A DNA stretch of 64,000 nt from a virus, in the IMG/VR virus record IMGVR_UViG_3300031991_000112; one strand, written 5' to 3'. The notes beneath the pieces are model-generated. The model was given only the letters and a program-made list of their open reading frames with translations. It was not told the origin of the DNA and ran no database searches. A program made the position numbers and the translations under genes. Below are positions 4,750-46,695 of this stretch, piece after piece (the first letter of the stretch is position 1; each line of letters begins with the position of its first letter).

Positions 4750-4829
4750 ATCTGATTGTGTAAGATGGCTTTAGGTCCGCAAGTGTAATCCATCTTATAG
4801 AAAAACACAACCTAGCGGCTAAATAGGGT

Positions 4830-5252
4830 ATGAGCATTCCAGACTTTATCCAATGGGTAGAAAACAGCCTCGATCAACAGGCGGATTCACCGGCATCTGC
4901 CGAAGTGATTCGTACTGGATTGCAGCCGCAGGTAGACGTTGAGGACTCTATCAAAAGCAAAGAAGACCATGATCAAATCATGGCTCTTGACAGTCACATT
5001 CAACGTATGAAAGAAGTCGCTCGCCGCTCAAGGCTTCGAGGCGGACAGGGGAAGAAGATTCAGTCTTTGATTCAACAATTTGCTGATGTTTGGGATGAAA
5101 TCATCAACAGCAACCCCGATGAATCCGACGCTGATGGTCTTGGCAATGAGAATCCAAGTCAGGATCAACTCAACTACATGAAAGACAATCAGCCATTGCC
5201 GGAACCGCCACGGTCTGGGGACGCCATACCGGGCGGTAAACCAGCAATTTAA
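4830..5252 (+). CDS. Hypothetical protein, candidate virion internal protein
   Basis: TAAATA 4 nt upstream of ATG; N-terminus MSIPDFIQWVE; acidic. Confidence 0.65.
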   Translation: MSIPDFIQWVENSLDQQADSPASAEVIRTGLQPQVDVEDSIKSKEDHDQIMALDSHIQRMKEVARRSRLRGGQGKKIQSLIQQFADVWDEIINSNPDESDADGLGNENPSQDQLNYMKDNQPLPEPPRSGDAIPGGKPAI

Positions 5253-6887
5253 TTACAGCGATTCAAAATCTGCACGATGCATAAGTGCCACATCTTTGGC
5301 TGGGTCTTTACCGGTGCAGAGGTAGACGATTTCTTCGTCATCTTCATTAACGGTTGCCAAGGCAACATCATTCTTCCACAACCGATAGATTGAAGTCATG
5401 GTTTCACGAGCATATTTGTCATACAACTGACTGCCATTGCTCATGTGTTGCATCAGGAACCAACCCTTACCACGATGGTTCGGGTCAACCAATCGGATAT
5501 CCGGTAGACCACCGTTGACATATCGGTTCATCAATTTTTTCTTGATGTACTTAAAGTCTTTGTTGGTGATACGCCATTCCCATTCGTGTTTTGGATTCTT
5601 GGACGGGAACTTTTGACGTTCGTAATACTGCATCTTCTCGCAGAACTCCGGTGTGAAGTATTCGGCGATCAGAGTCAAGTCATTACAGTATTCACGAACT
5701 TGGAAGACCTTATCTCGACCAAGACCAAGGTTCTTATCCCAAGCCTTGCGTTCAACAAGGTTATCGCACTCATCGTATTCACGACCAAAGCGACCTTTGT
5801 TCCACCGCTCTTCAATATCCATGAGCAACTCAAAACCAAGTTTGTAAGGGTTTTGAGACCACTCACCGCCCAACACAAGCATCTTGTGCTTGGCGTACTG
5901 AATGATGCCCATATCGTGACGTTTTTGACCAGCGGCACACAAACCTTCGCCGCACATCAAGTGGAAGTCCACGTAAGACGCCCAACCTTCGTTGATCATC
6001 TTAGTCAACCGTTGCGGAGCGAAGTAAATCGATTCTTCGTACAGCATCGACACGATATCTTGTTGCCAAGGTCGTAGGGGTGCGTTGTCTTTCAGGTAAC
6101 CGAAGATATCCTTCTCTGGTCCAGAGAAGATTTCGAGTTCCTTGGCAACTTCCTTACGATTCAATCGTTCTTTCTGCTTACCGATGAATCCTTTGGTGTT
6201 CACCCAATCTTCCATGTACTCGTTTGTAGGCACACGGCGATCTGGGTGTTCGATCTCACGGCGGTCACGAAGTTCCATCTTGGGCATCGGTTTAGGATGC
6301 CATTCTTTCGACGCATCGATCAGGGTATCAACACGCAACACATGGTCGATGAACTCGGTAACTCGCTCCTTGCCCCAACGAGCCATGTACTTGCGAATTC
6401 GTTTGCCGTGATTGGCAAACTTATTCATCATGTCGGTGTTTGTACCACGGAAGAACACATTGTTCTTGAAAAAATCGTTATGCCCCAAGGCGTGAGCGAT
6501 AACGTCAATGTTATCCACAAGCGTGTTGGAGTCGAGACAGTAGATCACGCACGGATTGGTGTTTACCACCATTTCCGAGATGCGATGCATACCGTACTCG
6601 TAACCACGACTCATCTCTTCGTATTCCATACCGAAAGACCAGTGCGGATACCGCACAGGGAAACCACCATAAGAGGCAATTTCCGAAATATCGTCGTAGG
6701 TACAAAACTCGATGATAGTCGGGTAGTAGTCGAGTCCAAACTCTTTACACTTTTTGAAAATTGTATCGAGTTGTTCTTTGACTTCCGGGTGAATCTTCAC
6801 ACCCGGCGTTGAATTATCACCGATGAGGAACGGTGATCCACTCAACATACGACTTTTGTTTTGTGGTGCAGTCTTACTCTTGCTCAT
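5253..6887 (-). CDS. spoVR: SpoVR/YcgB family protein
   Basis: GGFPVRYPHWSFGMEY, EMVVNTNPC, AHALGHNDFFKNN, TKMINEGWASY, NPYKLG motifs. Confidence 0.92.
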   Translation of the reverse strand: MSKSKTAPQNKSRMLSGSPFLIGDNSTPGVKIHPEVKEQLDTIFKKCKEFGLDYYPTIIEFCTYDDISEIASYGGFPVRYPHWSFGMEYEEMSRGYEYGMHRISEMVVNTNPCVIYCLDSNTLVDNIDVIAHALGHNDFFKNNVFFRGTNTDMMNKFANHGKRIRKYMARWGKERVTEFIDHVLRVDTLIDASKEWHPKPMPKMELRDRREIEHPDRRVPTNEYMEDWVNTKGFIGKQKERLNRKEVAKELEIFSGPEKDIFGYLKDNAPLRPWQQDIVSMLYEESIYFAPQRLTKMINEGWASYVDFHLMCGEGLCAAGQKRHDMGIIQYAKHKMLVLGGEWSQNPYKLGFELLMDIEERWNKGRFGREYDECDNLVERKAWDKNLGLGRDKVFQVREYCNDLTLIAEYFTPEFCEKMQYYERQKFPSKNPKHEWEWRITNKDFKYIKKKLMNRYVNGGLPDIRLVDPNHRGKGWFLMQHMSNGSQLYDKYARETMTSIYRLWKNDVALATVNEDDEEIVYLCTGKDPAKDVALMHRADFESL

Positions 6888-8125
6888 GCCTTGTACTCCC
6901 TCTCTTTGCCGATGATGCTTTTAATGGCTTCAATGATTTGAAGGTCACGCTCTTCGTCGCCCAAAGGTTGCGAACCGTAATCAGATTTGCCACTATTGGC
7001 TTTTGGTGCGATTAAAGCGGTACGAACGTGTTCGTACCCAGCTTTGGTAGCCAAATGATCCTTTACACCAAGACTTTTGTCAAGGTATTCTTTTAGAGTT
7101 CCTTCACTGCCCCAACTTCCGTAAGGGCAAATTTCAGTAAACCCGATCATGTTGACAATTTCGGGACCAAGTTCTTTCTGCATAAGATCGATGATCTTAT
7201 TGTTGTCCCCACCGCCCCAATTATCACCATCAGAGAAGTAGAAAATGTAAATGTTATACTGATCTGGTGGGAATCGGTTCTCAAGGATGTCGGCGACCAA
7301 TTGGAAGCCAGACGAGCATCGAGTTCCGCCGCCGCCACGATAGCCATAGAACTTTTCTTTCGAAACTTCCTCGGCATCTGTGTCGTGGACGATGTAACAT
7401 CGTTCCATTCGGTCGTAGTATTGCTTAATCCAGATGTCAATCCACCAAGACATATCACTCACGACATCACAACGGAAATCATCCATCGATCCCGAACAGT
7501 CACGAATAAAGAAGATCACAGCATTGCTGGATGGAATCTTCTCTTCTTGGTACTGACGGTATCGTTTATCGGAATTGATTGGAGTGATCAACGGCATCGG
7601 CACAGTGGTGCCGGGCAGTAGATGCAACTTTTGCAATTCGCCAGTAGCCGCCAATCGTTTAGCGGCTTCCAGCATTGTTCGGCGTGTATGACGAAGTGAC
7701 TCTGGACCCATTCGAGAGATGTCGTTGTAACGAATCTTAATCTCTTCATAGGTCTGGTTTGGCTTCGGCTTCATTTCCGGCAGTTGCAACTCATCCTTGA
7801 GGAACTTGAGGAATTCGTCGAGATCGACGCCTACCGTAATTCCATCAACGTGTTGATCACCGGCTTTGTTACCCTTGCCGTCACCCGGTTCGTAGCCAAC
7901 AACATCGCCTTCTTCACCTTCGCCACGTCCAAGGGCTTTCTGCCCGTTGTCGCCATGAAGGAAACGAGGTTGTTCAATACCTGTGACATTGACTCGAATA
8001 CGACCACCATCAGGGCGTTGCTTAATGAATCCGCCTGATTTTGTTAATCGTTTGAGTTCTTTGCGAGTTCGTCCGCCGACGACATCTCTGAAATGTTTGT
8101 GATCTTCTTGAATTCTTCTAGGCAT
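6884..8125 (-). CDS. yeaH: YeaH/YhbH (DUF444) family vWA-like protein
   Basis: AVIFFIRDCSGSM (MIDAS-like), GGGTRCSSG, YFSDGDNW; start set at MPRRI (8125) with GAGGA RBS. Confidence 0.9.
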   Translation of the reverse strand: MPRRIQEDHKHFRDVVGGRTRKELKRLTKSGGFIKQRPDGGRIRVNVTGIEQPRFLHGDNGQKALGRGEGEEGDVVGYEPGDGKGNKAGDQHVDGITVGVDLDEFLKFLKDELQLPEMKPKPNQTYEEIKIRYNDISRMGPESLRHTRRTMLEAAKRLAATGELQKLHLLPGTTVPMPLITPINSDKRYRQYQEEKIPSSNAVIFFIRDCSGSMDDFRCDVVSDMSWWIDIWIKQYYDRMERCYIVHDTDAEEVSKEKFYGYRGGGGTRCSSGFQLVADILENRFPPDQYNIYIFYFSDGDNWGGGDNNKIIDLMQKELGPEIVNMIGFTEICPYGSWGSEGTLKEYLDKSLGVKDHLATKAGYEHVRTALIAPKANSGKSDYGSQPLGDEERDLQIIEAIKSIIGKEREYKA

Positions 8126-8215
8126 TTGAATGTCCTCGTATAAGAAAAAGGCTAACTCTCGTCCGCTGTTCCGCCATGACATCACCTTTCAGCGGACGAG
8201 AGTAGCCAGTGTCAA

Positions 8216-10288
8216 TTACTCATCTTCATCGCCAGAAGCGAAGATGCTTGCGACGTATTCCAGAACATCGGTTGCCGATTTCTCGTTGTAACCGAAGTTC
8301 TTGACGAGTCGAGCTTTGATCGCATCGATCTTATCCTGAAGTTCAGGATCAACCGCTGCTGCTTCACTCGACAGTGAGGACAACTTGATAGAGTCTCTCG
8401 TATCATCGAACAACTTCAACTCAAGAGCACGCTTCAACTCAGGGTTTGAATCCCACTTGAAGTCCTGCTTACGAGCAGCCAATGTACCGATGAAGGCGGC
8501 GATCGACCGACGGAAGTCGGGAGAACCCTGATCGGGAATCTCGATCTTCTCTTCGATGCTTCTCATCAAACGTTCATCAGGCTCTTGGTCTTGACCAGTG
8601 ATTGGGTTGCGAACCTTTTCACGGTTGACGAAGGCAACAACGTTGTCGATGTACTTGGCACAGATGCGGACGATCAAGTTTTCGTCGCTGACAAGAGCTT
8701 TCTGAACTTCGTTCTTCAGAATGTCTTGCAGTTCCTTGACCGCCAGATCGTGAGCCTTTTCGTACTGATCGAGGTACTCGGCATCGACCAGCGAAGAGTT
8801 TTGCAAACGTGACTTCAGTTCGTTAAGAACGTGGAAGGCGTTGACATAACCCTTTTCACGGGCGATACAAGAAGAGATGCAGTCTTGCACATAACGTGCA
8901 GATACACCGAATTGCATACCTTCAGCAGGATACTTGTCACGGAGTTCTTTCACTCCGTCTTCGGTCCAGTTCGGCAGACTCTTGCCATCGTACAACTTGG
9001 CTTTGTCACGCAAATCCAGCTTGTTATCCGGGTCGTCATAGAGACGAGTCAGAACAGCGAAGAATGCAGACACTTCCAAGGTGTGCGGCATGATGTGCTG
9101 CTTCACCTTATCTGGTGCGTAGTCAAGCTGAAGAACCTTTAGTTCATCCGAGACACGCAGCAGGTACGGGATGTCAACCTTAACCGTTCGGTCACGAAGA
9201 GCTTCCATGTAGCGATTGCCACGCAGCTTTTCGTATTCAGGGTTGTTGGTGTGACCGATGATCAATTCATCCACACTGATTCGTGGGAACTTCTTCGGCT
9301 TGACACTGTGATCCTGAGTTGCTTCGAGCAAGTCGTAGAGGAATTCGTTCTGAAGCTTGAGTGCTTCAATGAATTCGATCATACCACGGTTGCCGACTTC
9401 GAATTCGCCATCGAAGTTGAAGGCACGAGGATCAGAGTCCGAACCATAGAAAGCGATGTTGCGGAAGTTGATGTCACCCGTCAACTCAGTCGAGTCTTGG
9501 TTCTTTTCGTCCTTCGGCTGGAACGTGCCGATTCCGATACGATCAGACTCAGAGTGGGCGAGACGCACCACACGAATGTGTTTGGCAACAACCTGTTCCC
9601 AATCACCGTTATACTTGTCGAGCAACTTCTTCATGAAGAGCTTGCAACGTGGGTTGAGTTCACCTTCGACACGCAGGTCGTAAGATTGGTGACTCTTAAC
9701 GCCATTCACTTCATGTGAATCTACAAATTTTGCATTCACATCTTCGAGGAACGGAACCAACATTTCCTTTGGCAGGAGTTTGACCGGGTTTTCACGAAGA
9801 GCAGAGCGGCACTCTGGTTCCGCAAAAACATCTTCAGGAAGATCAATCCAATCAAAGGTGTACCAAGCACCTTCATCCGTGCGGCTGTATCGTTCCAAGC
9901 CTTCTTTGATGGCTCGGCAGATGGTGGATTTCGAAGAACCCACAGGACCGTGGAGAAGCAAGAAACGCTTCTGAGTTCCGTAACCACCGGCAGCACCTTC
10001 AAGGTAGTTGACAATGGCGTCCAACGATTCCTCAAGTCCAAAAATCTTGACCTTGTGCTTGGTGAAGAAGTTGTACTTGGTGTATGTCTTACGGAATCTC
10101 TTGAACTTCTCAGTTCCGTCCGACATGATCATTTCATAGACGTACTGGTAAGCATTACGCAGTAGTCTTGGGTTTTCAGTACACTTCGTCAGATACTCAT
10201 CGAGAGTCATTGACTCATTGAGCGTCACAAAACGCTCTCGATCATAGTGTCGGGTGTACTTGGACAGGGTGGAATTGGTGACTTCCAT
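8216..10288 (-). CDS. prkA: PrkA/YeaG AAA+ ATPase / serine protein kinase
   Basis: LLLHGPVGSSKST, QPKDEKNQDSTELTG, DPRAFNFDG, NRGMIEFIEALK, HTNNPEY; start set at MEVTN (10288) with GAGAGG RBS. Confidence 0.93.
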   Translation of the reverse strand: MEVTNSTLSKYTRHYDRERFVTLNESMTLDEYLTKCTENPRLLRNAYQYVYEMIMSDGTEKFKRFRKTYTKYNFFTKHKVKIFGLEESLDAIVNYLEGAAGGYGTQKRFLLLHGPVGSSKSTICRAIKEGLERYSRTDEGAWYTFDWIDLPEDVFAEPECRSALRENPVKLLPKEMLVPFLEDVNAKFVDSHEVNGVKSHQSYDLRVEGELNPRCKLFMKKLLDKYNGDWEQVVAKHIRVVRLAHSESDRIGIGTFQPKDEKNQDSTELTGDINFRNIAFYGSDSDPRAFNFDGEFEVGNRGMIEFIEALKLQNEFLYDLLEATQDHSVKPKKFPRISVDELIIGHTNNPEYEKLRGNRYMEALRDRTVKVDIPYLLRVSDELKVLQLDYAPDKVKQHIMPHTLEVSAFFAVLTRLYDDPDNKLDLRDKAKLYDGKSLPNWTEDGVKELRDKYPAEGMQFGVSARYVQDCISSCIAREKGYVNAFHVLNELKSRLQNSSLVDAEYLDQYEKAHDLAVKELQDILKNEVQKALVSDENLIVRICAKYIDNVVAFVNREKVRNPITGQDQEPDERLMRSIEEKIEIPDQGSPDFRRSIAAFIGTLAARKQDFKWDSNPELKRALELKLFDDTRDSIKLSSLSSEAAAVDPELQDKIDAIKARLVKNFGYNEKSATDVLEYVASIFASGDEDE

Positions 10289-10331
10289 GTTTTCGAACCT
10301 CTCTATGAGTTTTGATGCTGAAAAAAGAAGC

Positions 10332-10544
10332 TTAACAAACTTCTTCGTCCGTTTCAACGGTCTTAATGATAACCTCTGGTATAAGATCGTCAAGACCAAT
10401 CGCTCTTAAATAATCTTTGCAGGCATCACGCATTTCTAAAGCTTCAGAAATATCGTTTGTGTCCCAAAGTCCAAATTTCGGATGTTTAAGATCAACACCC
10501 GACGAGCGATTGTGTAATTTATACTTTACCGGGGTTACTGTCAA
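10332..10544 (-). CDS. Small hypothetical protein
   Basis: 70-aa ORF co-oriented and contiguous in the minus-strand operon. Confidence 0.55.
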   Translation of the reverse strand: MTVTPVKYKLHNRSSGVDLKHPKFGLWDTNDISEALEMRDACKDYLRAIGLDDLIPEVIIKTVETDEEVC

Positions 10545-10794
10545 GACTACTTCCTTTACGAATCTTGAATCGGTTCTTGGGATTTGTAAGACGCTGCTTT
10601 TTCAAAACAGCAGAAACGGGCGACGGAGGCGTAGGAGCTTTCACAGCATTACGTAATCTGCGAGATACTGCCTTCTTTGGTTTCCTCATATCCTTAGAAA
10701 CCTTGAGTCCAGTCTCCTTGCTGATCCGCTGCTTCAATAGAGTAGTCTCTGGCTTAACTCCAAGAGCATTTAGAAATTCTCTGAAAGTTTGCAT
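10519..10794 (-). CDS. Basic hypothetical protein, candidate virion internal protein
   Basis: GGAGG RBS; N-terminus MQTFREFL; K/R-rich. Confidence 0.65.
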   Translation of the reverse strand: MQTFREFLNALGVKPETTLLKQRISKETGLKVSKDMRKPKKAVSRRLRNAVKAPTPPSPVSAVLKKQRLTNPKNRFKIRKGSSLDSNPGKV

Positions 10795-11117
10795 CAGACC
10801 TCCGGTTTGATACCAGCAACATCGCCAACCGCTTTTGCAATATCTCCTACTTGCAAGTTCTTACGCTTGTTGACGTTCATGTGAGGTTGAAACTTTGAGA
10901 CCGCTTTGATAGCTGTTTGGTAAGATTGTTTTGGACTAGAGGCTTTTGTCATCTTGCCTACAACATCAGGATTGTCAGCAACAATCCTATTAGCAGTTGC
11001 CGTCAAATCTTTAGATGGTTTTTCTAATCCATTGGCGTAGTCTTTGCCCATATCCATGCTGATTTCCAGCAAGGATTGTTGATAACGTAGCCATTCTGTG
11101 AAGTTCATTGGTCTCAT
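10794..11117 (-). CDS. Hypothetical protein, candidate virion internal protein
   Basis: TAAATA 5 nt upstream of ATG 11117; N-terminus MRPMNFTEWL. Confidence 0.65.
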   Translation of the reverse strand: MRPMNFTEWLRYQQSLLEISMDMGKDYANGLEKPSKDLTATANRIVADNPDVVGKMTKASSPKQSYQTAIKAVSKFQPHMNVNKRKNLQVGDIAKAVGDVAGIKPEV

Positions 11118-11193
11118 GCGAGTATTTATGCGTTCAAGATTCCAATTTGCCACACTACAATACAATAGAGATCATCCAACATAAGGGGGAACT

Positions 11194-11982
11194 ATGTTCA
11201 GAACATTCTGTACTCTGTTTGTAGCTCTGTTTCTCGGTATCTCCGTACAAGCTGAGGAAACTTCTCAGCAAGTCAGAGGCGGTCTTCGCATCGGCGACTA
11301 CTCTGTATCAATCGGACATCAAGAATACAAAGAATATCGTGACCAGCGTGGTTATATCGTTCGTGGAAATGTATGGACAGCCAATGAAGCTGATAGCCGT
11401 GGCTATGTCCGCATGGATCACATGCAGCGATATGAAGTACGCCTTGGTTCGTCTTACTATGGCGAATCTGATGCAAAAATTGAAATTGATGGCAAGGAGA
11501 TTGGTGTTTTTAGAGTCCACTCTAATTCAGCAATCGTCATCGAACGCAGCATCAAGGACAAAGGACGTTTGACGTTCTTGACAAATGGCACTAGAGAATA
11601 CTTCGATGCAGGTCTGGATCGTGTTCCAGCTAACCAAAGAGGTTTGATCAAGGTCACGTTCTATCCAGAAAGACTTAGACATCGTGTTACAGAAAAGACA
11701 GAAGTGCCACACGAAACCACAGAAGGTAAGATTGCAACTTTCGGTTCGAAAGATTTAAGATCAGGCGGCACTGGTCTTACAGGTCGCAGCGACCAAGAAT
11801 TTCGTGACGCTAATGAAATCACAAGAGACTACAGCAACAGCGTTACCATCTATCTTCGTTTGGTTGAAGAAGAACGATTCCGTGCCTCGGAATCAGAGGT
11901 CAGACCACTTGAGGATACCAGAAATTATGGTAGAACCAGTGTGCCTAGGAACAACCCTGTTCCACCACCAGTAGAACGATAA
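11194..11982 (+). CDS. Secreted hypothetical protein
   Basis: Signal peptide (VALFLGISVQA-EE); GGGGGAA RBS; followed by a terminator. Confidence 0.75.
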   Translation: MFRTFCTLFVALFLGISVQAEETSQQVRGGLRIGDYSVSIGHQEYKEYRDQRGYIVRGNVWTANEADSRGYVRMDHMQRYEVRLGSSYYGESDAKIEIDGKEIGVFRVHSNSAIVIERSIKDKGRLTFLTNGTREYFDAGLDRVPANQRGLIKVTFYPERLRHRVTEKTEVPHETTEGKIATFGSKDLRSGGTGLTGRSDQEFRDANEITRDYSNSVTIYLRLVEEERFRASESEVRPLEDTRNYGRTSVPRNNPVPPPVER

Positions 11983-12012
11983 GACTCATCTGCCATGTGT
12001 AGAAGGAGATCG

Positions 12013-12045
12013 GACGCCGTACCCAAAAGTACGGCGTCTGTTTTT
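12013..12045 (+). terminator. Intrinsic terminator
   Basis: GACGCCGTAC-ccaaaa-GTACGGCGTC followed by TGTTTTT. Confidence 0.8.
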
Positions 12046-12340: not shown

Positions 12341-12496
12341 ATGAAGAAGTTTTTCTTAGCACTTATGATTGCAGCAAGTTGTTTTGCGGTAGTAGGCTGT
12401 CAGCCTTGTAATTGCTCATGTGGTCCTGAATGCAAATGCAGTCAGAACCAATGTTGCATCGACCACAATTGCAAACACTGTAATCACAGTAAATAA
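12341..12496 (+). CDS. Small Cys-rich lipoprotein
   Basis: GGAGG RBS; MKKFFLALMIAASCFAVVG-C lipobox; mature part CQPCNCSCGPECKCSQNQCCIDHNCKHCNHSK. Confidence 0.7.
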   Translation: MKKFFLALMIAASCFAVVGCQPCNCSCGPECKCSQNQCCIDHNCKHCNHSK

Positions 12497-12519: not shown

Positions 12520-12663
12520 ATGAAGCAATTCATGATGTTTGTATTCGCTGTTGCTCTCGGTATCAGTACCATTGGGTGCTGCCGTACATGTAGCCCACGC
12601 TACACGCCGGAAGAAGCTGGACAATCCCAGCAAGCAGAGCCTCAGCAAGACGGTCAAAAGTAA
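12520..12663 (+). CDS. Small lipoprotein (47 aa; not in ORF track)
   Basis: AGGAG RBS; MKQFMMFVFAVALGISTIG-CCRTCSPRYTPEEAGQSQQAEPQQDGQK. Confidence 0.7.
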   Translation: MKQFMMFVFAVALGISTIGCCRTCSPRYTPEEAGQSQQAEPQQDGQK

Positions 12664-12678
12664 CCGTGATCAACCATT

Positions 12679-14536: not shown

Positions 14537-14572
14537 AGTAACCTCCAAATTATCTATCCATATCAAGAAACG

Positions 14573-17643: not shown

Positions 17644-17979
17644 ATGCCTTTTTATGATTTCAAGTGTTCTAAATGCGAACACATTTGGGATGAAATGACG
17701 AGCCACGATCCGAGCGATAAATACGAAAAGATCGTTTGTCCAGAATGCGGCTCGAAAAAGAAAGAAAAACTGTTTCCAAGCAGTTTTTCTATTGGCGGTC
17801 CTACATCGTCTAAGATGGACAACTTTGGTTACCGAGCGGGTTTTAATTGGGAACGTGCTCAAGGTGAACGTCGTGCGGCAGAGGAAGCCGCAGGGGGTTC
17901 TTCGCCATATCGTGATACAAACGACTTCGCTCTAGGCGAAGGTATTCATGATCCAGAAACCAGACCGGGTATGAGTTAA
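17644..17979 (+). CDS. FmdB-family zinc-ribbon protein
   Basis: MPFYDFKCSKCEH...CPECGSKK pattern. Confidence 0.8.
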   Translation: MPFYDFKCSKCEHIWDEMTSHDPSDKYEKIVCPECGSKKKEKLFPSSFSIGGPTSSKMDNFGYRAGFNWERAQGERRAAEEAAGGSSPYRDTNDFALGEGIHDPETRPGMS

Positions 17980-18154
17980 TCTTTAACTTGTGGTTGTTCT
18001 TTTGGCTTCTTCTTTTTGTTGTCGATATCAAGTTCGTCAAACTTGGGCATTTTGCCTCGACGAACTGGTCCCGGCAAAGCTGGTCTAGCAAAGCCAGCTA
18101 CACATGAAGTGGAAGTCATAGCTTCCTTATAGAACCACTCTTTGAAACTCAACA

Positions 18155-18634
18155 TTACATCATCCCTCCACCCATCGGTGGTCCACCCATTCCGCCGCCA
18201 GCACCGCCTGCTTGCGAGAATGGCTTCAATAGAATGTCATCAAGTGTACGGTTTTTGTTTTTACCTCGACCACGAAGACGTAACTTTTTGTCTTTCAAAT
18301 CACCTTTATACTGAGTCCCATTTGGGTTTCTCATCTTTTGGCGATTTTGCATCGAGTACATGATATTACCCTTCAAGTCGCCGTCTTCGCTATCTTCGAG
18401 ATCAACGAAAACAGGGGCAGAGGTCTTTGGACCGCCATCTTGATCCAGCGGTTCAAAACTTGTAATAGGTTCTTTCAGATAATCCTTTGGTTCCAGTCCA
18501 TCAAATTCACTACCAAGCTCTCTAGTAGCATAACGAAAATCGTTGACTTTCTTGGAGCCGGGTGCGGACGGTCCCCCACCAGCGACAGGTGCCGCTTCCT
18601 CTTGTTGCATCATGAATTCACGAAAAGTAATCAT
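18155..18634 (-). CDS. Hypothetical protein, candidate virion internal protein
   Basis: TATATA 7 nt upstream of ATG 18634; MITFREFMMQQEE; Gly/Met/Pro-rich tail. Confidence 0.65.
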   Translation of the reverse strand: MITFREFMMQQEEAAPVAGGGPSAPGSKKVNDFRYATRELGSEFDGLEPKDYLKEPITSFEPLDQDGGPKTSAPVFVDLEDSEDGDLKGNIMYSMQNRQKMRNPNGTQYKGDLKDKKLRLRGRGKNKNRTLDDILLKPFSQAGGAGGGMGGPPMGGGMM

Positions 18635-18675
18635 ACAGAGATATATACACTTGGGACACAAGAATGGAGGCGTCT

Positions 18676-19116
18676 TTGACATCACTAGGTTTTTCTACCT
18701 TTAGAGACTTGATCGATCTATGGGACGAACAAGTTGAAAAATACCAGAAAGAGCGGCAAATCCGTAATTTGGTAGATGGTCAAGGTATGCTTTTATTCTT
18801 TAAGTGTAACGGAGACATTTTTGGTGCTGGTGAGGATGGTCGAGTTGTTTTTGCCAGAATCAAAAACCCCGACAAAGAAGACAAAGAGTGGGGAGAGGAA
18901 GCAAGTTTCTCCGCTCTCAATTTAACTAAAACTGTTGCTGGCGAACGCTCAAGTTCAATCTTCGGAAAGAAAGACTTGGATAAGATCAAAGTGATCGACA
19001 GCGAAGCGGCAGTTAAAGAACTATGCAAGAAGGACGTTGATCAAGAAATCGAAGTTCCTGACGGCGAAGACGGCGATCATACGCCAGACAACTTTATTCA
19101 GACAATGGAGCAATAA
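18676..19116 (+). CDS. Hypothetical protein
   Basis: GGAGG then TTG start; stop coupled to the next ATG. Confidence 0.65.
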   Translation: MTSLGFSTFRDLIDLWDEQVEKYQKERQIRNLVDGQGMLLFFKCNGDIFGAGEDGRVVFARIKNPDKEDKEWGEEASFSALNLTKTVAGERSSSIFGKKDLDKIKVIDSEAAVKELCKKDVDQEIEVPDGEDGDHTPDNFIQTMEQ

Positions 19117-19514
19117 TGGCTGATATAGACAATTCACTGGTATTACATGACCTGAGAAAAGAATCCATTGTTCGTGAACTGATTGAGAAGACGAAGAATG
19201 GCGGTATTACATGGGCTTCTCTTGGAAGCAACCAGTTCCAAGCATCCTTCGTAGCTACTGACCTTGTGACAGTTTGGACATTTTTCGTAAGCAAAACTCA
19301 AATCGGAAGTTTGAGTTACAAGTATAACCTTGACGTTAAGAGAAACTCTAACTCTTTCCTCACTTTGAGTGACGGACCTTTGGCTTCCTCTTCGAGAGAT
19401 AGTCAAACCAAGGATTTGTACGAAATTATCGAAATGTTGACCTTACAACTTGATCAACGTGCTGAAGAGGCTTTGCGTGCAATCCAAAACGTATTGAGTT
19501 GTGCAGAGGTTTAA
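19116..19514 (+). CDS. Hypothetical protein
   Basis: TAATG translational coupling with the upstream gene. Confidence 0.65.
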   Translation: MADIDNSLVLHDLRKESIVRELIEKTKNGGITWASLGSNQFQASFVATDLVTVWTFFVSKTQIGSLSYKYNLDVKRNSNSFLTLSDGPLASSSRDSQTKDLYEIIEMLTLQLDQRAEEALRAIQNVLSCAEV

Positions 19515-19519
19515 TCACC

Positions 19520-20200
19520 ATGACTTTCTGGACTGAAACAATGAATCCACCTGTCAGAACTTGGCAGTGCTTCGTGTGTGGCGGCAAGCTCGAAACATAC
19601 GGTGACTACGCCGAACATATCATTAAAGAACACGACGAAGGACGAGATTACGTTAAGTGTCCAGTAGACACTTGCGGGGCACCTGTAAGGGACTTAAAAA
19701 CCCACTTCAAAGTGAAGCACCCAAAACGTGACATGCCAAAAAACTGCCAATTAAAGGCAACAATCTGGCGTGATTTCTCGCCAAACGGCAACAAGAAGCC
19801 TAAAACAAGAAAACCAACCTTCAAAGAAGGTTGGTTTGAATCCCTCAAGAACAGCGGTGCAAAAATGTACTACCGTTCCGGGTACGAAGCTGATGTCTAT
19901 CAGTGTTTGGAAGATGACAATGATGTTAAGGCTTTCCAACCAGAACCATTCAAGGTTCCTTACTACTTCCAAAATGAATGGCACAACTATATCCCAGACA
20001 TCAAGATTACATACCAAGATGGTACAACTGAAATCTGGGAGATCAAGCCAGCGACACAAACTGGCTATGAAAAGAATAAAGCCAAGTGGAAAGCGATGAA
20101 TGAATACGCTGACAAACTTGGCTGGAATTTTACTGTTGTGACCGAGAAGGGTATCAGCACCCTTAAGAAAAAGGTTCGAGATCAAGGCAAAACGACATAA
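19520..20200 (+). CDS. Zinc-finger protein fused to a TnsA-N/T4 gp4 (head completion)-like nuclease domain
   Basis: CxxC...H..H and CxxxxC...H..H fingers; YRSGYE...EPFKVPY...YIPD...WEIKP. Confidence 0.65.
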   Translation: MTFWTETMNPPVRTWQCFVCGGKLETYGDYAEHIIKEHDEGRDYVKCPVDTCGAPVRDLKTHFKVKHPKRDMPKNCQLKATIWRDFSPNGNKKPKTRKPTFKEGWFESLKNSGAKMYYRSGYEADVYQCLEDDNDVKAFQPEPFKVPYYFQNEWHNYIPDIKITYQDGTTEIWEIKPATQTGYEKNKAKWKAMNEYADKLGWNFTVVTEKGISTLKKKVRDQGKTT

Positions 20201-26639: not shown

Positions 26640-26710
26640 CTCAGTACACCCCTCTTATGTGGATAAGTGTTGTATCTGGGAACACTTTGTTCCCGTACAA
26701 TATCTATCCA

Positions 26711-28777: not shown

Positions 28778-30028
28778 TTACTCGTCATCGTTGGTTTCTT
28801 CTTCGTCTTCAACTTCAATATCCAACGGATTTCCGTCAGCATCGAAGACGACCTTCTTCTCAGAGAAGAGTCCGCTGTCCGTGTAGTTGATGGCAGCTTG
28901 GAATGGCAACAGGTATTCAGAAACCTGCTCAGCAGTCGTAGCACCAATCAAGGCTGGACACTCAAGCAACACTGCCGGTGGAACGTCATTACGTTCGAGG
29001 CTGCTCTTGAACTTGTACTCGTCTCTGCCTTCTGGCAAGTATTCAGAAGCAACGGTGTAGTTGCCCTTACCGGTCACACGTCCATCTTCGATGATGGCGG
29101 TCAACAATCCAGTAATTGGATTGATACCAGTCTCGAAGTAGAGCTTAATGCCTTCGTGCTTCACAAACGGACGGAAGGCACGATTCTTGATGTTCTTGAC
29201 TTCCATGTTCACACCAGAGAAGGTCTTGAGCTTCTTGTGCTCAATCTTCTTCTTCTGTTGTGTGCGTAGTCGGCAAGACGCATAGAATGGCAGCGAGTTT
29301 CCACCACCAGCGGTGGTTTCAGGTGAACCATAAAGAACACCGATCTTATCACGAGTTTGGTTGATGATGACAACTGTCACATCTTCCTTCTCAAGCATCG
29401 GTTGTAAGAGACGCAAACCTTTACCACAGACCTTGGCACGTTCGCCCGGTTGCTCTTTGGCACCGACGATTGTCTTCCAATCGGTTGGCTTGTAGTTCTC
29501 TGGCAAGTTCGTTTCACGGAACTCTCGTTCACAAGGCGAAACCGAGATCGAGTCGTAAACGACAACGATTGGCTTTCGTTCTTGCTTCAAAGCAATTTCA
29601 CGTGCTCGAATTTTCTTGACCGCATTGTGAATCTTGTTGAAAGCTTCTTCAAGAGTGAACGGCGTGTAACGCAATACACGCTTGGTGTTCAAGTGGGAAG
29701 CCTTCTCCATCCACTCAGCATTGGTTGCATTTTCGCAGTCAAGAATGATTGGCCAACCGCCAATCTTCTGGCAACCGAACAGAATGTTCGATGCGAGCAA
29801 AGACTTACCGGACGCTGAAGGTCCATAGATTTCGGTAATACGTTGACCGGGGATACCACCGTCAATGAACTTGCCGGAACAAATATAGTTCACTGCAAGG
29901 TTGCCTGTATCCACGAAGAACTTACAGTTCTCCAACTCGCCCAAGATATCGCCACCAGTTTCTTCTGCGACCGACTTAAAGAGATCGTCGCACATCTCAT
30001 CTTCACTTACAACTTTTTTCTTAGCCAT
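28778..30028 (-). CDS. recA: RecA/UvsX recombinase
   Basis: GIPGQRITEIYGPSASGKS, LDCENA, VYDS, INQTRDKIG..YGSPETTAGG..LPFYASCRL; start at MAKKK with GGAGA RBS. Confidence 0.92.
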   Translation of the reverse strand: MAKKKVVSEDEMCDDLFKSVAEETGGDILGELENCKFFVDTGNLAVNYICSGKFIDGGIPGQRITEIYGPSASGKSLLASNILFGCQKIGGWPIILDCENATNAEWMEKASHLNTKRVLRYTPFTLEEAFNKIHNAVKKIRAREIALKQERKPIVVVYDSISVSPCEREFRETNLPENYKPTDWKTIVGAKEQPGERAKVCGKGLRLLQPMLEKEDVTVVIINQTRDKIGVLYGSPETTAGGGNSLPFYASCRLRTQQKKKIEHKKLKTFSGVNMEVKNIKNRAFRPFVKHEGIKLYFETGINPITGLLTAIIEDGRVTGKGNYTVASEYLPEGRDEYKFKSSLERNDVPPAVLLECPALIGATTAEQVSEYLLPFQAAINYTDSGLFSEKKVVFDADGNPLDIEVEDEEETNDDE

Positions 30029-30216
30029 TGAAAGTTCTCCCATTTTTGTAATTCGTTTATATAGCCAATAGTTCATATTGCTCCAATCAGTCTATGTTCT
30101 TTTTCTTTTACGACTGTTGAAGAAATCGTCGCTCATCCCCTGTTCGTTTAGAGAAAGAGCCAGAACCAGTCTAGCTGATTCTGGCTCTCCTCAAATTCCG
30201 TTCTCAGAAAACCAGA

Positions 30217-35145: not shown

Positions 35146-35161
35146 TTCTATCTACGGTTCA

Positions 35162-39223: not shown

Positions 39224-39309
39224 ATATCTCTTATCCTTTCAATTTCCCTGTATCTACGTCTTATCAAAACAGGGCTTGCGTATTAAGCAATTTCTTGTGA
39301 TTCAGAGAT

Positions 39310-39338: not shown

Positions 39339-39361
39339 AGTAAGTTTCGGACCGAAGACCA

Positions 39362-39403: not shown

Positions 39404-39428
39404 AAGCTGTCATCCGTGACAAGCGAGG

Positions 39429-40007
39429 TTAATTGCCACCACCGAGATAATCGAATTCAGAGATCGAGACCATGCCCGACCGCCAGAACTTTTCTCGTGT
39501 GATCTTCTTGCCCTTCTGCTTCAACTCGTTCCAAGTAATTTGCTTGCAGTAAGTCTTAAACTTGGTGTCGATGTTGATATGAGCCTTCCTATCAGAACGG
39601 TACTCTTTGGGCACGTGTTTCTTGACGAGCTTATCCAGAATGTCTTCTTGATGTTCACCAAACTTTTGGCGGTTTGCACCATGCCTCGTTCTGTTGTCCC
39701 ACAAGTGTTCAAGTTCATTTACGACACGTAGGATAAATGTGTCGTCAACGTGTTCCTTGAGTGCCTCGAAACTTCGCTCGATATAGGTTTGTCTTTTGTA
39801 GTACGAAGCCGCCTTAATCATGGCGATTCGTAAATCTTGAACAATGTCTTCCTGTTCGTCAGAACAATTGTTCTTCCAGTTCATCCCAAGCAAAATCCAA
39901 GCTTGCTTGTGACATAGTTTGATGAATTGCTTCTCAAGAAGTTCGTACTCTTCAACTGAGATAGGCCAACTGTTTACAACGTTTTGCATACTTTGCATTG
40001 GAACCAT
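39429..40007 (-). CDS. Sigma-70 region-2-like protein (candidate phage late sigma factor)
   Basis: EDIVQDLRIAMIKAASYY and FKTYCKQITWNELK resemble regions 2.2 and 2.3-2.4; no region-4 HTH. Confidence 0.55.
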   Translation of the reverse strand: MVPMQSMQNVVNSWPISVEEYELLEKQFIKLCHKQAWILLGMNWKNNCSDEQEDIVQDLRIAMIKAASYYKRQTYIERSFEALKEHVDDTFILRVVNELEHLWDNRTRHGANRQKFGEHQEDILDKLVKKHVPKEYRSDRKAHINIDTKFKTYCKQITWNELKQKGKKITREKFWRSGMVSISEFDYLGGGN

Positions 40008-40048
40008 TCCTTTGATAACGTGAGTTTATATTCATGTTTTGTAATCCT

Positions 40049-42039: not shown

Positions 42040-42064
42040 GTGCTACCTCCTTTGAGGTATCTAT

Positions 42065-42500: not shown

Positions 42501-42558
42501 CCATTCTTTAATTTTCGGACCGAATTGTGTAAGATAGTCTTATACAAATGGGGTTCAC

Positions 42559-42942: not shown

Positions 42943-43610
42943 CCGAGGAAGAGGGCAAGGCATTCAGATTGGCTCTTATCTGGGAAGACCTGACACGTCA
43001 GATGTTCCCGAAAGAGAAAGGTGTTGCACGACTACCTAGTGGCGACCCAAGAAAGAGTACCTTGTTCCGGTTCTGTTGGAAGCTACGTAGAGAAACACGT
43101 GGGCTTTTGAAGTTTGAGGAATATAAGCTCTACATGAAGGCTAACTTGACTATGATCAAGGTCAAAAACCTTCATTTGTCCCCCAACGTTTTGTGTGGTG
43201 ATAGTGCATGGATTCGTTGGCGTATCTGGAAAAGACTATACGACAAGAAGCTCCTTGAAATGGCTGGTGATGAGAACAAAAAACTGAATGTTGAAGTTAC
43301 ACCAGCGGTCGTCAAGAAGCTCGAAACAACCAAACGCTTTTTGTTTGAGAAGTGTGAAGGTCAGCCGAGCATCGACAAATTGAGAGCCTTCTATGACGAT
43401 AAGTCGCTTCATTTGTGGGCTGGCACACGTATTGCTCATCTCTACCTGCTTCTTTCGCCTTGGGTCAAAGAAGTTGCCCCAATCAAGATGTTAGAAAGAG
43501 AGATGTTCTTTGACGCCAAGGTTTATGAAGAACAGATCAACGAGAATGTGAAGATTTACTTCAGGCAAGAATTCGCTCATGAGTTTGGGGAGCCTCTGAT
43601 CAATGAGTGA
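42900..43610 (+). CDS. Hypothetical protein
   Basis: 236-aa ORF in the plus-strand operon. Confidence 0.7.
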   Translation: MDSKRLQPILDYDLTEEEGKAFRLALIWEDLTRQMFPKEKGVARLPSGDPRKSTLFRFCWKLRRETRGLLKFEEYKLYMKANLTMIKVKNLHLSPNVLCGDSAWIRWRIWKRLYDKKLLEMAGDENKKLNVEVTPAVVKKLETTKRFLFEKCEGQPSIDKLRAFYDDKSLHLWAGTRIAHLYLLLSPWVKEVAPIKMLEREMFFDAKVYEEQINENVKIYFRQEFAHEFGEPLINE

Positions 43611-43950
43611 CATTGTGTTAAGATATTGGGGTGATCTCACTGAAGAACAACAAGGGTATTTCAGCCAAGGTATGCGTACAGCAAACCGAAATTTGTTGCG
43701 AGAATACTTGAGAGTTGATTGCGAAAGGGTCGCTTTCTATAAGCCAGACGAAATCTTTGTTCGGTTCGTCTCTCAAGAATACCAGTTCTGTGACTACTTT
43801 ATTGTGAATGCCGCTGTGTTTGAAGAGATGCTACTGCGATTTAACCTCAACGATACTGCTTCGATGTTAAGCACGTTACGTGACTTTTGTCACCGCCGTT
43901 GTGTTCCAGTAGTTGAAGAAGAAGTTAATTGGGAGAAAGAAGGTTTCTAA
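43603..43950 (+). CDS. Hypothetical protein
   Basis: Coupled to neighbours. Confidence 0.65.
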   Translation: MSDIVLRYWGDLTEEQQGYFSQGMRTANRNLLREYLRVDCERVAFYKPDEIFVRFVSQEYQFCDYFIVNAAVFEEMLLRFNLNDTASMLSTLRDFCHRRCVPVVEEEVNWEKEGF

Positions 43951-44282
43951 TGAGAATCGTTAAAGTCCGTACCAAAAAGAATTACGCCGAAGCCTCTAAC
44001 CATGTGCTGATCGGCGAAGTCGTGGAGTTCAACAAGGTCTTCATTCGTGTGAAATGCCGATCATTTCATTACAAATATGTGACTCTGACGGAGGATCAGG
44101 TAACCGAAGGATCGGTTGATGATCGTCTCGTTCCTTGGCAGAATGTTGAGTGTGTGAATGTATTGGATGCCAATTTTGATTGGGAACATGCTTCACTGAC
44201 AAAATGCACCGATGGTATCTGTCTCAAAGATGAGAAAGAACTTTCAACTCTTGTAAGTCGTTATCGAATGACTCATCAGTAG
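43950..44282 (+). CDS. Hypothetical protein
   Basis: TAATG coupling; MRIVKV start. Confidence 0.65.
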   Translation: MRIVKVRTKKNYAEASNHVLIGEVVEFNKVFIRVKCRSFHYKYVTLTEDQVTEGSVDDRLVPWQNVECVNVLDANFDWEHASLTKCTDGICLKDEKELSTLVSRYRMTHQ

Positions 44283-45064
44283 TATTTGAAGTGTACTGCT
44301 ATGCAGTCGCAAATTTCTTCCATTGGTTGTGTTGGGAAGAAATACATGTTGATGTCGTCGGGCATAATCTCGAACTTACGTTCTCGTCCCGTGCCTGATT
44401 CGAGATTGTAGTTGTTGATTCTTACTGTTCCAGTAGTCTCGTCAAACGAGATTTGGGTGACGTTAGCGTCAACGGTTTGTTGATCTTGAGCTTCCACACC
44501 CCCGGCTCGGCATTCAAAAACAACGTGGTAGCAGGTTTCGCTGAGCTTCTTAATGCCACGAAAGATAAAGATTGGGTTCGAAACCCTACGCATTGCTTGA
44601 GAGACTTTATGAGTCAACTTTTCTAAGTTCTCAAATTTCGGCTTTGGATGATCGATCTCATTTTGGTTGAGTTTTTCGATGGTCTCGTAGATTTCATTGG
44701 CGATTATGTCTTCGTATCCAGCCAAACCTCGTCGGTTCAACTGAAACAATTTTTTGGTCGCCCAACGTTTATTTCCTTCAAGGTCGTAATTTAGGCGTCT
44801 TATATGAAATGTGTATCCGGTGTCAACTTTGAGGCTCATAGCACCCGGTCGTTCCCCGCCCCAACTGATTTCGTTCATAAAGCCACTGTAATCTGCTTCG
44901 TGGAGACCGAGTTTTTTACGTACCAATAGCTTCATCATCAGTTCGACATCGAACTGACGAATTGGATAGTTTTCGAGTTCTTTATGTGCCTCATCTTCGA
45001 CGGCATTACGACCGCCTTCGAACCCGAAAATGTCAACAGCTTCGTAAAATCTCTTAAAGTCCAT
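44276..45064 (-). CDS. Hypothetical protein, candidate virion protein
   Basis: TATATA 5 nt upstream of ATG 45064; N-terminus MDFKRFYE. Confidence 0.7.
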   Translation of the reverse strand: MDFKRFYEAVDIFGFEGGRNAVEDEAHKELENYPIRQFDVELMMKLLVRKKLGLHEADYSGFMNEISWGGERPGAMSLKVDTGYTFHIRRLNYDLEGNKRWATKKLFQLNRRGLAGYEDIIANEIYETIEKLNQNEIDHPKPKFENLEKLTHKVSQAMRRVSNPIFIFRGIKKLSETCYHVVFECRAGGVEAQDQQTVDANVTQISFDETTGTVRINNYNLESGTGRERKFEIMPDDINMYFFPTQPMEEICDCIAVHFKYY

Positions 45065-45165
45065 GATGGTATATAGATTCTTGGTGTTCAAAAGGTTGTC
45101 TTGCAAATTTTAGTTAAAATTGATCAAATGGTCTCTTGTCAACTCAATCAGATAAGGGGCATTGA

Positions 45166-46083
45166 ATGCGTGACATACTCTCGGTCGATGATTTCGCTCA
45201 AGAAGATATTGCCGAACTTTGCACACTCGCTGACGGTTTTCGGCGTTACCGAATGGCGGCGAATTCCAATCTCATGAAAGTCAACCTGAATTTTGATTTT
45301 CGTGGAAGGCTCATGGGAACGCTGTTCATTGAACCGTCTACTAGAACAAGGTTGTCTTTTGAATCGGCTATGAAGAGGTTGGGTGGAGATGTCATCAAAA
45401 TCGATAATCCAAAATCTGCATCGACTGAAAAAGGCGAGTCTTTCCAAGACACGCTCAGAACTATCGGGCAATACGTCGATGTTCTCGTGGTTCGCACCGA
45501 CCGGAAGATTTCCGATCATCCTAGAAACTACGTCAATTGTCCAGTTATCAATGCTGGTGATGGTGCTGGTGAACACCCAACTCAAGCCCTCACCGATCTT
45601 TATACCATGTGGCGTAAATTTCCTGATCTCCGTGGTGAAGTTGCAATCACAGGTGACCTAAAACATGGTCGTGCCGCACACTCAGTAATCCGTATGTTGA
45701 ACCTTTATACCAAGTTCAACGTTCATGTCTACAGTTATACACCGTTTGACCTCAAAACTATCGGTGATATCAAGTATCCTGAAAACCTTCATTTCGTGAA
45801 GGATGAAAAGTCTTTAGAGAGTCGCCTCCCCGATCTCGATGTGCTTTATATGACTCGTTTTCAAAAAGAACGTGTTGATCTACAAGCGGTGATTCCTCAA
45901 AAATTCATTTTGACAACTGATCGTTTGGCTGGGATGAAGCGTGATGCAATGCTTCTCCACCCGCTGCCTAGATTGGACGAGATTCCAAGAGAGATCGATA
46001 ATGATCCTCGTGCAGCGTATTTTGAACAGGTGCAAAATGGGATGTATGCGAGGATGGCTTTGTTGCACAAGATTTTTGCGTGA
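45166..46083 (+). CDS. pyrB: Aspartate carbamoyltransferase catalytic subunit
   Basis: FIEPSTRTRLSFE, KGESFQDT, INAGDGAGEHPTQAL, GDLKHGR, LYMTRFQKER, HPLPR. Confidence 0.95.
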   Translation: MRDILSVDDFAQEDIAELCTLADGFRRYRMAANSNLMKVNLNFDFRGRLMGTLFIEPSTRTRLSFESAMKRLGGDVIKIDNPKSASTEKGESFQDTLRTIGQYVDVLVVRTDRKISDHPRNYVNCPVINAGDGAGEHPTQALTDLYTMWRKFPDLRGEVAITGDLKHGRAAHSVIRMLNLYTKFNVHVYSYTPFDLKTIGDIKYPENLHFVKDEKSLESRLPDLDVLYMTRFQKERVDLQAVIPQKFILTTDRLAGMKRDAMLLHPLPRLDEIPREIDNDPRAAYFEQVQNGMYARMALLHKIFA

Positions 46084-46098
46084 AGCCTATATACTTGC

Positions 46099-46695
46099 AT
46101 GAACAGTTTTAGACTTTGGCTCGAAGAACAAGAAAACGCAGAGGCTAATCGGAAGAATTTTTTCGATCAGGTCATGCGTACCTTGCAAGCTACGGAAGAC
46201 GATCTGAGCAAGCCTCTTGATGAGCTTCCAGCAGTCCGTACACCAAAACCCGCTGATGGCGAGTCTCAACCGCCAAGTAAGGGTCGTGGTGCTCTCGTCA
46301 AAGTACAACAACTTCTAAGTAACATCTTGCAACAGATGTCTAATGATCGTGGTGATGTAGATAGCTCGGTTCGAGCTAAACGCACGATGGATATGCTGAA
46401 CAAGCGGTCAAATGACGGCAAAGTCAGTCCAGACCTTTATTTACAAGATTTGTTACGTGAGCTTTTTGGCAATGATTTCCATCAGGACTTCTTGAATTCT
46501 CAGCCGAGTGCTGACACGAAACCTACGCCACCACCGGATGACAACGCCGCCATGCAACAGGGTCAAGACCCGGCAGCAGGGGCAGACTTGAATGATCCAA
46601 CTGGTGGTGCTGGAATGGAACAGCCACCGGGCGGGATTCCTGACGAAATGCCTATGCCCAATAAGCCTCCTTTTGGCGGACGCAAGTTCATTTGA
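46099..46695 (+). CDS. Hypothetical protein, candidate virion internal protein
   Basis: TATATA 5 nt upstream of ATG; MNSFRLWLEEQE; Pro/Gly/Met-rich tail. Confidence 0.7.
   Translation: MNSFRLWLEEQENAEANRKNFFDQVMRTLQATEDDLSKPLDELPAVRTPKPADGESQPPSKGRGALVKVQQLLSNILQQMSNDRGDVDSSVRAKRTMDMLNKRSNDGKVSPDLYLQDLLRELFGNDFHQDFLNSQPSADTKPTPPPDDNAAMQQGQDPAAGADLNDPTGGAGMEQPPGGIPDEMPMPNKPPFGGRKFI

Follow-up and report, generated by a model that had tools for sequence, protein, structure and literature searches.

What links a short A/T-rich DNA box to the N-terminal peptides of the proteins encoded just behind it? The question is raised by a 64-kb stretch of viral DNA (IMG/VR record IMGVR_UViG_3300031991_000112; the whole stretch is called the window below). 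A first-pass annotation had noticed in it five open reading frames (ORFs) with TAAATA or TATATA (the box) a few nucleotides before the ATG, no Shine-Dalgarno (SD) sequence, and N-termini (the tag) resembling the capsid targeting sequence (CTS) of the internal proteins (IPs) of phage T4, and had taken them for late-expressed proteins packaged in the phage head. Our analysis confirms that the pairing of box and tag is real, far beyond chance, and found throughout the phage lineage to which the window belongs.

The window was scanned for TA[AT]ATA followed by 4-7 nt, an ATG and an ORF of at least 40 codons, the chance level being taken from 200 dinucleotide-preserving shuffles of the window. Exactly five sites were returned, while the shuffled sequences held 0.24 on average and at most 2; they are the five genes first noticed, at the positions first given. 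For all TAWATA-N4-7-ATG sites the figures are 7 observed and 1.6 expected. The boxes are TAAATA at 4820-4825 (+), 4 nt before the ATG at 4830, in the divergent gap between starts at 4749 (-) and 4830 (+); TAAATA at 11123-11128 (-), 5 nt before the ATG at 11117, divergent from a gene at 11194 (+); TATATA at 18642-18647, which in the minus-strand reading lies 7 nt before the ATG at 18634, or 6 nt before it when the box is taken as TATATAT; TATATA at 45070-45075 (-), 5 nt before the ATG at 45064; and TATATA at 46088-46093 (+), 5 nt before the ATG at 46099. Four of the five sites are located in divergent intergenic gaps. None of the five genes is preceded by an AGGAG-like SD element, in agreement with the earlier description, and most other genes of the window have one. 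The five proteins share the N-terminal pattern M-x-x-F-(K/R)-x-(W/F)-(L/I).

In the window proteins as a whole, F-x-x-[FW]-hydrophobic turns up 0.0018 times per residue, so that about 0.75 N-terminal matches would be expected among 84 genes; seven were found. These are the five boxed genes and two SD-led second genes of operons, starting at 10794 and 18155. The first-pass annotation had the boxed five and 10794 right, and overlooked 18155 (MLSFKEWFYKEA).

The window, about 45% G+C and dense in phage replication genes (a DnaE PHP fragment, a split PolA, a DnaB-like helicase, a UvsX-like recombinase and a helicase), is part of a 107-kb contig from a biofilm metagenome, and its source is a huge phage of a T4-related lineage. 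The sequencing runs that contain its DNA are DNA runs from biofilm and cave metagenomes, with no RNA run listed. Among 50,697 phage records its sole relative is an uncultured, published 595-kb genome, LR756511.1; a DNA search with 6.3 kb of the window against the same records gave no match. As comparison genome we used the whole of a 458,813-bp IMG/VR contig (G001), which is syntenic with window positions 2,600-45,100 at amino-acid identities of 40-64%.

The tagged genes of the window are diverse. That at 4830-5252 (+) encodes a polar, low-complexity protein of 140 aa with the weakest instance of the tag, MSIPDFIQWVE. The gene at 10794-11117 (-; 107 aa, MRPMNFTEWL) has a positional counterpart in G001 at 107399, with TATATA-N4 and MSLSFKNWL; downstream of it, as had been stated, lies the second gene of the operon (10519-10794, -), led by a GGAGGT SD and encoding a basic protein of 91 aa, MQTFREFL. 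The 159-aa protein of 18155-18634 (-; MITFREFMMQQEE) has a disordered, Gly/Met-rich C-terminus and an orthologue in G001 at 100481 (26% identity over 157 aa, E=2e-6) with TATATA-N6 and MLRSFKEFV, and its SD-led operon partner (17976-18155, -; 59 aa, with a Lys-rich tail) corresponds to the G001 gene at 100963, N-terminus MKFKKWLEMTDTSSVAGF. The 262-aa protein of 44276-45064 (-; MDFKRFYEAVDIFGF) represents a core family of the lineage; its homologues number at least 79, on contigs as long as 693 kb, and F3, E8, D11, F13, G14 and F15 are invariant. Back to back with this family stands, in relatives, the 'F-K-x-W-L-E' family of the disordered 198-aa protein of 46099-46695 (+; MNSFRLWLEEQE), whose G001 orthologue is at 72633 (E=2e-7). 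In the window a 305-aa gene (45166-46083, +) is inserted between the two; its N-terminus resembles aspartate/ornithine carbamoyltransferase by eye, and its only tool match is phrog_37670, of unknown function. A further tagged gene, of 261 aa, has its 3' part in the window (2-577, +), its SD-led start (MAQDFLEYLNS) about 208 nt upstream of the window, and an orthologue in G001 at 121936, N-terminus MAFMKFDEYLDS. PHROGs and Pfam searches with the seven tagged window proteins gave nothing useful and no family. Most tagged proteins are polar and of small to medium size, with a median length of about 170 aa, and a Gly/Pro/Ser-rich middle and a Lys-rich tail are frequent; in G001 tagged and untagged proteins have equal median lengths, and the tagged ones are only slightly more polar.

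The pairing extends well beyond the window. At 23 loci orthologous to the 262-aa gene, the upstream DNA is unrelated save for (G/C)TA(A/T)ATA at 4-7 nt from the ATG. Over 18 non-redundant related loci, 40 of the 52 ORFs behind box-N4-7-ATG carry the tag, typically in forms such as MSFKIWLE, MKKFSIWLEE and MKTFRVWLEE. The genes of G001 divide into 15 with tag and box, 29 with the tag only, 19 with the box only and 602 with neither (odds ratio 16, p=1.3e-10, Fisher test), and its 44 tagged genes compare with 9.7 expected; the tagged share of genes in the huge-phage lineage is about 7%. A 40-kb stretch of LR756511.1 holds six further box-tag examples. The earlier judgement that the coupling of the two motifs is unlikely to be chance is thus upheld throughout the lineage. 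The G001 orthologues of the window's tagged genes keep box, spacing and tag, and the rest of these proteins is at 21-48% identity or without detectable similarity. The box-led tagged genes, together with some SD-led neighbours, encode otherwise unrelated proteins, and they are syntenic core genes within the replication module.

Enzyme domains also occur among the tagged proteins of G001: HD + PolyA_pol, an M36-like peptidase and an FMN reductase. The first is a 720-aa protein (209335-211494, that is L035:9335-11494, -) combining HD and poly(A)-polymerase/CCA-adding-like domains, with the tag MKSFNEWLVESS and a TAAATA-N5 box; this RNA-repair-type enzyme might be packaged.

Literature searches on the CTS or leaderless transcripts in huge or jumbo phages gave no account of a box-tag system, and a search on LR756511 found nothing. 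As far as these searches reach, the system is present, undescribed, in the published genome LR756511.1.

The tag and the T4 capsid targeting sequence

A logo derived from 113 curated tagged genes shows the consensus M-(K/L)-(T/S/K/N)-F-(K/R)-(E/Q/N)-(W/F/Y)-(L/I)-E-(E/N). The first aromatic residue falls at residues 3-6 in 111 of the genes, the remaining two having it at residue 2, and in-frame stops upstream bound the tagged ORFs. The aromatic pair, F and then W/F/Y three residues later, was required by the search pattern; the positions outside the pattern are biased as well, with K/R in 58% at +1 and E in 39% at +5 (W-L-E). L/I accounts for 71% at the equivalent of T4 position 8. Glu occupies +6, the T4 position (I-A-E), in 18%, and the first Glu lies within +5 to +8 in 80 of the 113 genes. 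All six Leu codons, TTT and TTC, AAA and AAG, GAA and GAG, and AGA and CGT are used at tag positions. Since synonymous codons vary so freely, selection must act on the peptide and not on DNA or RNA, which rules out a nucleotide-level element as the source of the shared sequence. SD-led genes account for 28 of the 113, so the tag is independent of leaderless expression.

In the T4 record, IPII and IPIII begin with MKTYQEFIAE and IPI with MKTFKEF. For the CTS of these proteins (Mullaney and Black 1996, as reviewed in PMC9026906), the review gives the first 10 residues as enough for packaging, residues 4 and 7 serving mainly targeting, and 8 and 10 processing. The targeting residues are Y4/F7 (F4/F7 in IPI), and the huge-phage tag has aromatics at the equivalent positions. 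The resemblance first proposed holds at the positions that serve targeting, and is less good at those that serve processing, where the Glu usually comes one residue earlier. In T4, the protease gp21 cleaves after L/I-x-E. More generally, both are N-terminal tags, some 10 residues long, borne by proteins that are not otherwise related, with M-K-T-(Y/F)-(Q/K)-E-F-(I) on the one side and M-(K/L)-(T/S)-F-(K/R)-x-(W/F)-(L/I) on the other: two aromatics, then an aliphatic residue and Glu. The second aromatic is preferably Trp here. In G001 three consecutive genes of one operon, 4 kb downstream of the capsid gene, begin with MKTFQEWLNE, MKTFQRFFLTEE and MKTFLNWLKN.

The systems differ in scale and in place. 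T4 has 3-4 tagged genes and a tagged share of about 1%, as compared to some 44 genes per genome here; the same search pattern run over 96% of the T4 genome gave 8 matches, among them IPII, IPIII and gp61.1, so that the huge phages hold about ten times more. The IP locus of T4 is hypervariable, while the tagged genes here are conserved, syntenic and in the replication region, which excludes them as a hypervariable IP-like locus. T4 IP genes have SD leaders, whereas about half of the tagged genes here appear leaderless. The T4 protein gp61.1 (54 aa, uncharacterised; L054:18966-19130, -) deserves mention in its own right: its gene adjoins the primase gene in the replication module, and its CTS-like N-terminus, MKTFKEFIKED, is followed by a middle part rich in Gly and Ser and a tail rich in Lys and Glu, which is also the layout of the window gene at 17976-18155. 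The phages SPN3US and phiKZ, with very large capsids, target many internal head proteins and process them with a gp21-related protease; the propeptides, borne by head and ejection proteins, are of 80-130 residues without a consensus tag, as opposed to the nearly uniform 9 or so residues found here (PMC5694885).

Machinery able to read a T4 tag exists in the lineage. G001 encodes homologues of T4 gp17, gp20, gp21, gp23, gp19, gp15, gp13 and gp4, and its 435-444 kb region runs in the order portal, protease, scaffold-sized gene, capsid, with a scaffold candidate at 441199-442095. The protease domain Peptidase_S77 (PF03420) scores 88 bits in G001 and 96 bits in LR756511.1. The latter has two such genes, at 526118-526534 and 242621-242989 (96 and 35 bits), a situation that recalls SPN3US, for which a diverged paralogue of the protease has been reported. 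PF03420 gave a single weak match in five related contigs, all fragmentary and 18-25% complete. The head genes of the window amount to one, a gp4-like head completion gene (19499-20200, +) found by tblastn with T4 gp4 and matching phrog_218, head closure, at E=2e-19; it is the last of the 18664-20200 operon.

An AlphaFold2 (AF2) model of the 262-aa protein (pLDDT 83) has residues 1-23 below 50, with a helix at residues 3-10 and a linker separate from two generic alpha+beta domains. In the model, then, the tag is a detached element, a short low-confidence helix predicted to lie outside the fold. Searches of the model with Foldseek (PDB, BFVD) and VIA-align gave a generic two-domain alpha+beta likeness and nothing on a capsid role, the similarities including, at a generic level, the C-terminal domain of T4 MotA (Z 6.6). 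The protein itself had no match by tblastn in the phage collection and no usable match in a protein atlas search.

The box as a probable promoter, and its candidate reader

The conserved box, (G/C)TA(A/T)ATA, stands 4-7 nt before the ATG and most often 5 (among 51 boxed tagged genes the spacing is 4 nt in 12, 5 nt in 24, 6 nt in 6 and 7 nt in 9). T4 late promoters, which are served by gp55, gp33 and gp45, consist of an 8-bp TATA box at -13 to -6 (TATAAATA) without a -35 element, and T4-related phages such as Aeromonas phage Aeh1 vary at -13/-12 (PMC2988020). The claimed likeness to these promoters is borne out for the six-base core: TAAATA is identical to the 3' six bases of the T4 late box. 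The full TATAAATA precedes some G001 operons, the MKTF operon among them. Beyond the core no conserved upstream element was seen and the two bases 5' of it vary; both systems have an A/T box with no conserved upstream element and variable -13/-12. What differs is that TATATA is here as frequent as TAAATA, and that the box is placed such that, with T4 geometry and a 5-nt spacer, +1 would fall on the A of the ATG.

At three related loci (L018, L022 and L023) two tagged genes diverge across 16-18 nt with a single palindromic TATATA in the middle of the gap, 4-7 nt from each, which leaves no space for leaders or SD sites. In the window, the TATATA at 18642-18647 likewise sits singly in the 29-nt gap between the ATGs at 18634 (-) and 18664 (+), the latter opening a three-gene operon (18664-20200, +); it is a candidate bidirectional promoter, and G001 repeats the divergent arrangement at 100451/100481. 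The box is also found 12-30 nt upstream of genes with their own SD, in the window as TAAATA at 12490-12495 (+), 24 nt before a small SD-led gene at 12520, and as TATATA at 30058-30063 (-), 29 nt before the SD-led ATG at 30028 of the UvsX-like gene. Shared palindromic copies and use before SD-led genes both fit a -10-type promoter and not a ribosome-binding element.

The -10 element of the sigma-70 type is TANNNT and needs its final T. The box, whose last base is A, is not of this type, and TANNNT cannot be recovered by reading it in another register. Leaderless transcripts have precedents. The middle and late transcripts of Thermus phage phiYS40 are leaderless. In Deinococcus-Thermus a -10 motif 6-7 bp before the ORF is an established source of leaderless mRNA (PMC12340547). 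The Deinococcus-Thermus case shares with ours a -10-type box near the start codon, the lack of an SD and 5' ends often mis-called by automatic annotation; it differs in that the arrangement here is restricted to a particular class of phage genes, the rest being strongly SD-led, and in that the box is not TANNNT. The messages of many tagged genes probably start at the ATG itself. The automatic call for the gene at 10794-11117 begins at 11057 (87 aa) and cuts off the tag, which was missed because the true start lacks an SD. Leaderless starts in the lineage are probably often mis-annotated in this way, and the promoter-plus-ATG arrangement offers a rule for correcting them.

A candidate reader of the box is encoded in the window at 39429-40007 (-). 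This 192-aa protein has at least 579 homologues on huge-phage contigs, the G001 copy being 57% identical. Its AF2 model (pLDDT 81) is an all-helical domain with a disordered C-terminal tail and no region 4. About half of the best 50 VIA-align matches are to sigma domain 2 (Z 5.6-7.3, rmsd 2.6-3.9 A), including SigB, sigma-28, a sigma-70 fragment, extracytoplasmic function (ECF) sigmas and a complex of sigma domain 2 with -10 DNA, and the model thus suggests a sigma factor reduced to domain 2. The hydrophobic tail, SISEFDYLGGGN (SEFDYL), resembles the clamp-binding end of T4 gp55, SLDFLYEAND, and BLASTP against gp55 gave a weak match (E=0.013). The gp55 profiles did not match the 192-aa protein, and the family had no match in the PDB by phmmer, profile search or Foldseek. 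Nor was a gp55 homologue detected in G001 by tblastn or with the PHROG profiles phrog_234 and phrog_12791. No gp33 homologue came to light either, though no search aimed at gp33 was made.

Two other box-like elements were seen. TAGATA, one base away from the box of the tagged genes, occurs on the minus strand of the window at 42058-42063, 39251-39256, 26701-26706, 14551-14556 and 35149-35154, 15-60 nt upstream of a non-coding stretch and of SD-led replication genes, including dnaB and the polA operon, and never at leaderless spacing; it may be a second promoter class. Around 265,000-350,000 of G001 (L038-L042, +) lie 85 one-strand copies of (T)GATACCAACTAG, each 20-40 nt upstream of a gene with an SD; a G/C-rich hairpin often comes after the copy. 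The window has none of them, and they look like a separate, uniform promoter class, of an early region or of a phage RNA polymerase.

Proposed packaging of the tagged proteins, and competing explanations

We favour, on balance, an explanation in which a phage-specific, leaderless promoter resembling T4 late promoters is joined to a CTS-like capsid tag. In this promoter, which would lack a -35, the box would serve as the -10-type element, read by the host core RNA polymerase together with the 192-aa domain-2-only factor. With T4 geometry, transcription would start at, or at most 2 nt from, the A of the ATG, giving leaderless mRNAs translated without an SD. The tag would act like the T4 CTS, its two aromatics docking the protein to the prohead scaffolding core, after which the gp21-family protease would cut behind the nearby Glu. 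Once mature, the proteins would remain beside the DNA inside the capsid, either as internal proteins associated with it or as cargo for the next cell. Tag and box bear a specific likeness to the T4 CTS and to the T4 late promoter respectively, which is backed by the T4-type head machinery of the relatives.

Several points weigh against this explanation. That the genes are expressed late from leaderless messages, and that their products are packaged, cleaved and injected, are all predictions from sequence. The Glu, being mostly at +5 and not at +6, gives no exact fit to the L/I-x-E rule, and tagged genes make up about 7% of the total as against about 1% in T4. Two tagged proteins, the HD + CCA-adding-like protein and the FMN reductase, have no obvious role in a capsid, and the tagged genes lie among replication genes, outside the head module, the evidence for which comes from relatives apart from the single gp4-like gene. 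The untagged genes behind the box are a mixture (HNH endonuclease, SbcD fragment, transposase, methyltransferase) and not classic late genes, so they lend no support to late timing. Lastly, gp55 profiles match neither G001 nor the 192-aa protein, and Z values of 6-7 are a grey zone for helical proteins.

Some of these points speak for a reading in which the tag docks another shared partner, such as the membrane, the sliding clamp, RNA polymerase or a compartment for replication or assembly, and the proteins act unpackaged in the infected cell. This is the main rival, though we consider it rather unlikely. The position in the replication module, the enzymes, a number of genes far above that of T4 and the offset Glu would all fit; F, W and L at i, i+3 and i+4 make a generic amphipathic helix, and the clamp-binding epitope of gp55, SLDFLYE, is likewise a short aromatic and acidic motif. 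Yet such clamp-binding epitopes are C-terminal in T4 (PMC2988020) and the tag is strictly N-terminal; it is nearly identical to the T4 IP N-termini, down to the M-K-T prefix, it is found together with a T4-type head module and a protease of the gp21 family, and tagged genes cluster beside the capsid gene of G001.

The box might instead be an ordinary -10 element for the host primary sigma, or a general class of phage promoter, with tagged genes that are not specifically late. The sister box TAGATA before SD-led replication genes, the non-structural nature of the untagged box genes and the failure to find a gp55 homologue by sequence point that way, as does the existence of bacterial phyla in which an ORF-adjacent -10 is the normal leaderless architecture (PMC12340547). 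We nevertheless hold this to be unlikely, in view of the final A of the box where sigma-70-type elements need T in any register, its identity with the end of the T4 late box (complete, as TATAAATA, in G001), its place at the head of the operon with the gp4-like head completion gene, and the conserved domain-2-only protein with its gp55-like tail; TAGATA, for its part, is never at leaderless spacing in the window.

That TA(A/T)ATA is an A/U-rich translation-initiation element, replacing the SD on longer transcripts, is suggested by its location at the position of a ribosome-binding site in genes that lack one, but is improbable: it is a defined hexamer with a G/C flank rather than merely A/U-rich, a single palindromic copy is shared by the two genes of divergent pairs only 16-29 nt apart, in gaps that have to contain the promoters, and it recurs 12-30 nt before genes with an SD of their own. 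Chance, or AT-rich codon choice at leaderless starts, can be dismissed, for although the motif was defined post hoc and F, K and E have AT-rich codons, the shuffle and Fisher tests reject it, W (TGG) and all six Leu codons appear at tag positions, 28 of 113 tagged genes are SD-led, and the pattern is kept in orthologues at 21-48% identity.

Packaging by tag, if correct, would have several consequences. Were the tag a capsid address label, the packaged and injected proteins of uncultured huge phages could be read from their genomes, with dozens of candidates per phage for host takeover, anti-defence or DNA condensation, and the tag itself would be short and possibly portable. The fullest version, in which phages of 450-700 kb load some 40 proteins, enzymes included, by a tag of about 9 residues, as a leaderless regulon under a domain-2-only sigma factor, we advance only tentatively, as somewhat doubtful in its entirety; it would imply a packaged, injected proteome tenfold that of T4, recognisable by sequence alone. 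The box also points to a separate translational class, that of leaderless messages, in a phage otherwise dependent on SD sites, and together with the conserved domain-2-only protein it makes a testable model of late transcription for a lineage without a cultured member.

Other genes of the window

Two further features concern neighbouring genes. A complete PrkA / DUF444 (YeaH) / SpoVR operon occupies 5253-10399 (-), with 51-64% identity to G001, and its PrkA is 56% identical to the counterpart in LR756511.1. DnaE is split: the window gene at 2609-3991 (-) encodes 460 aa with the PHP domain and the start of the alpha NTPase domain, and some 9 kb upstream of the window there is a second, separate DnaE-like gene (L050:18579-20519) of 884 aa, with alpha, finger and HHH_6 domains.

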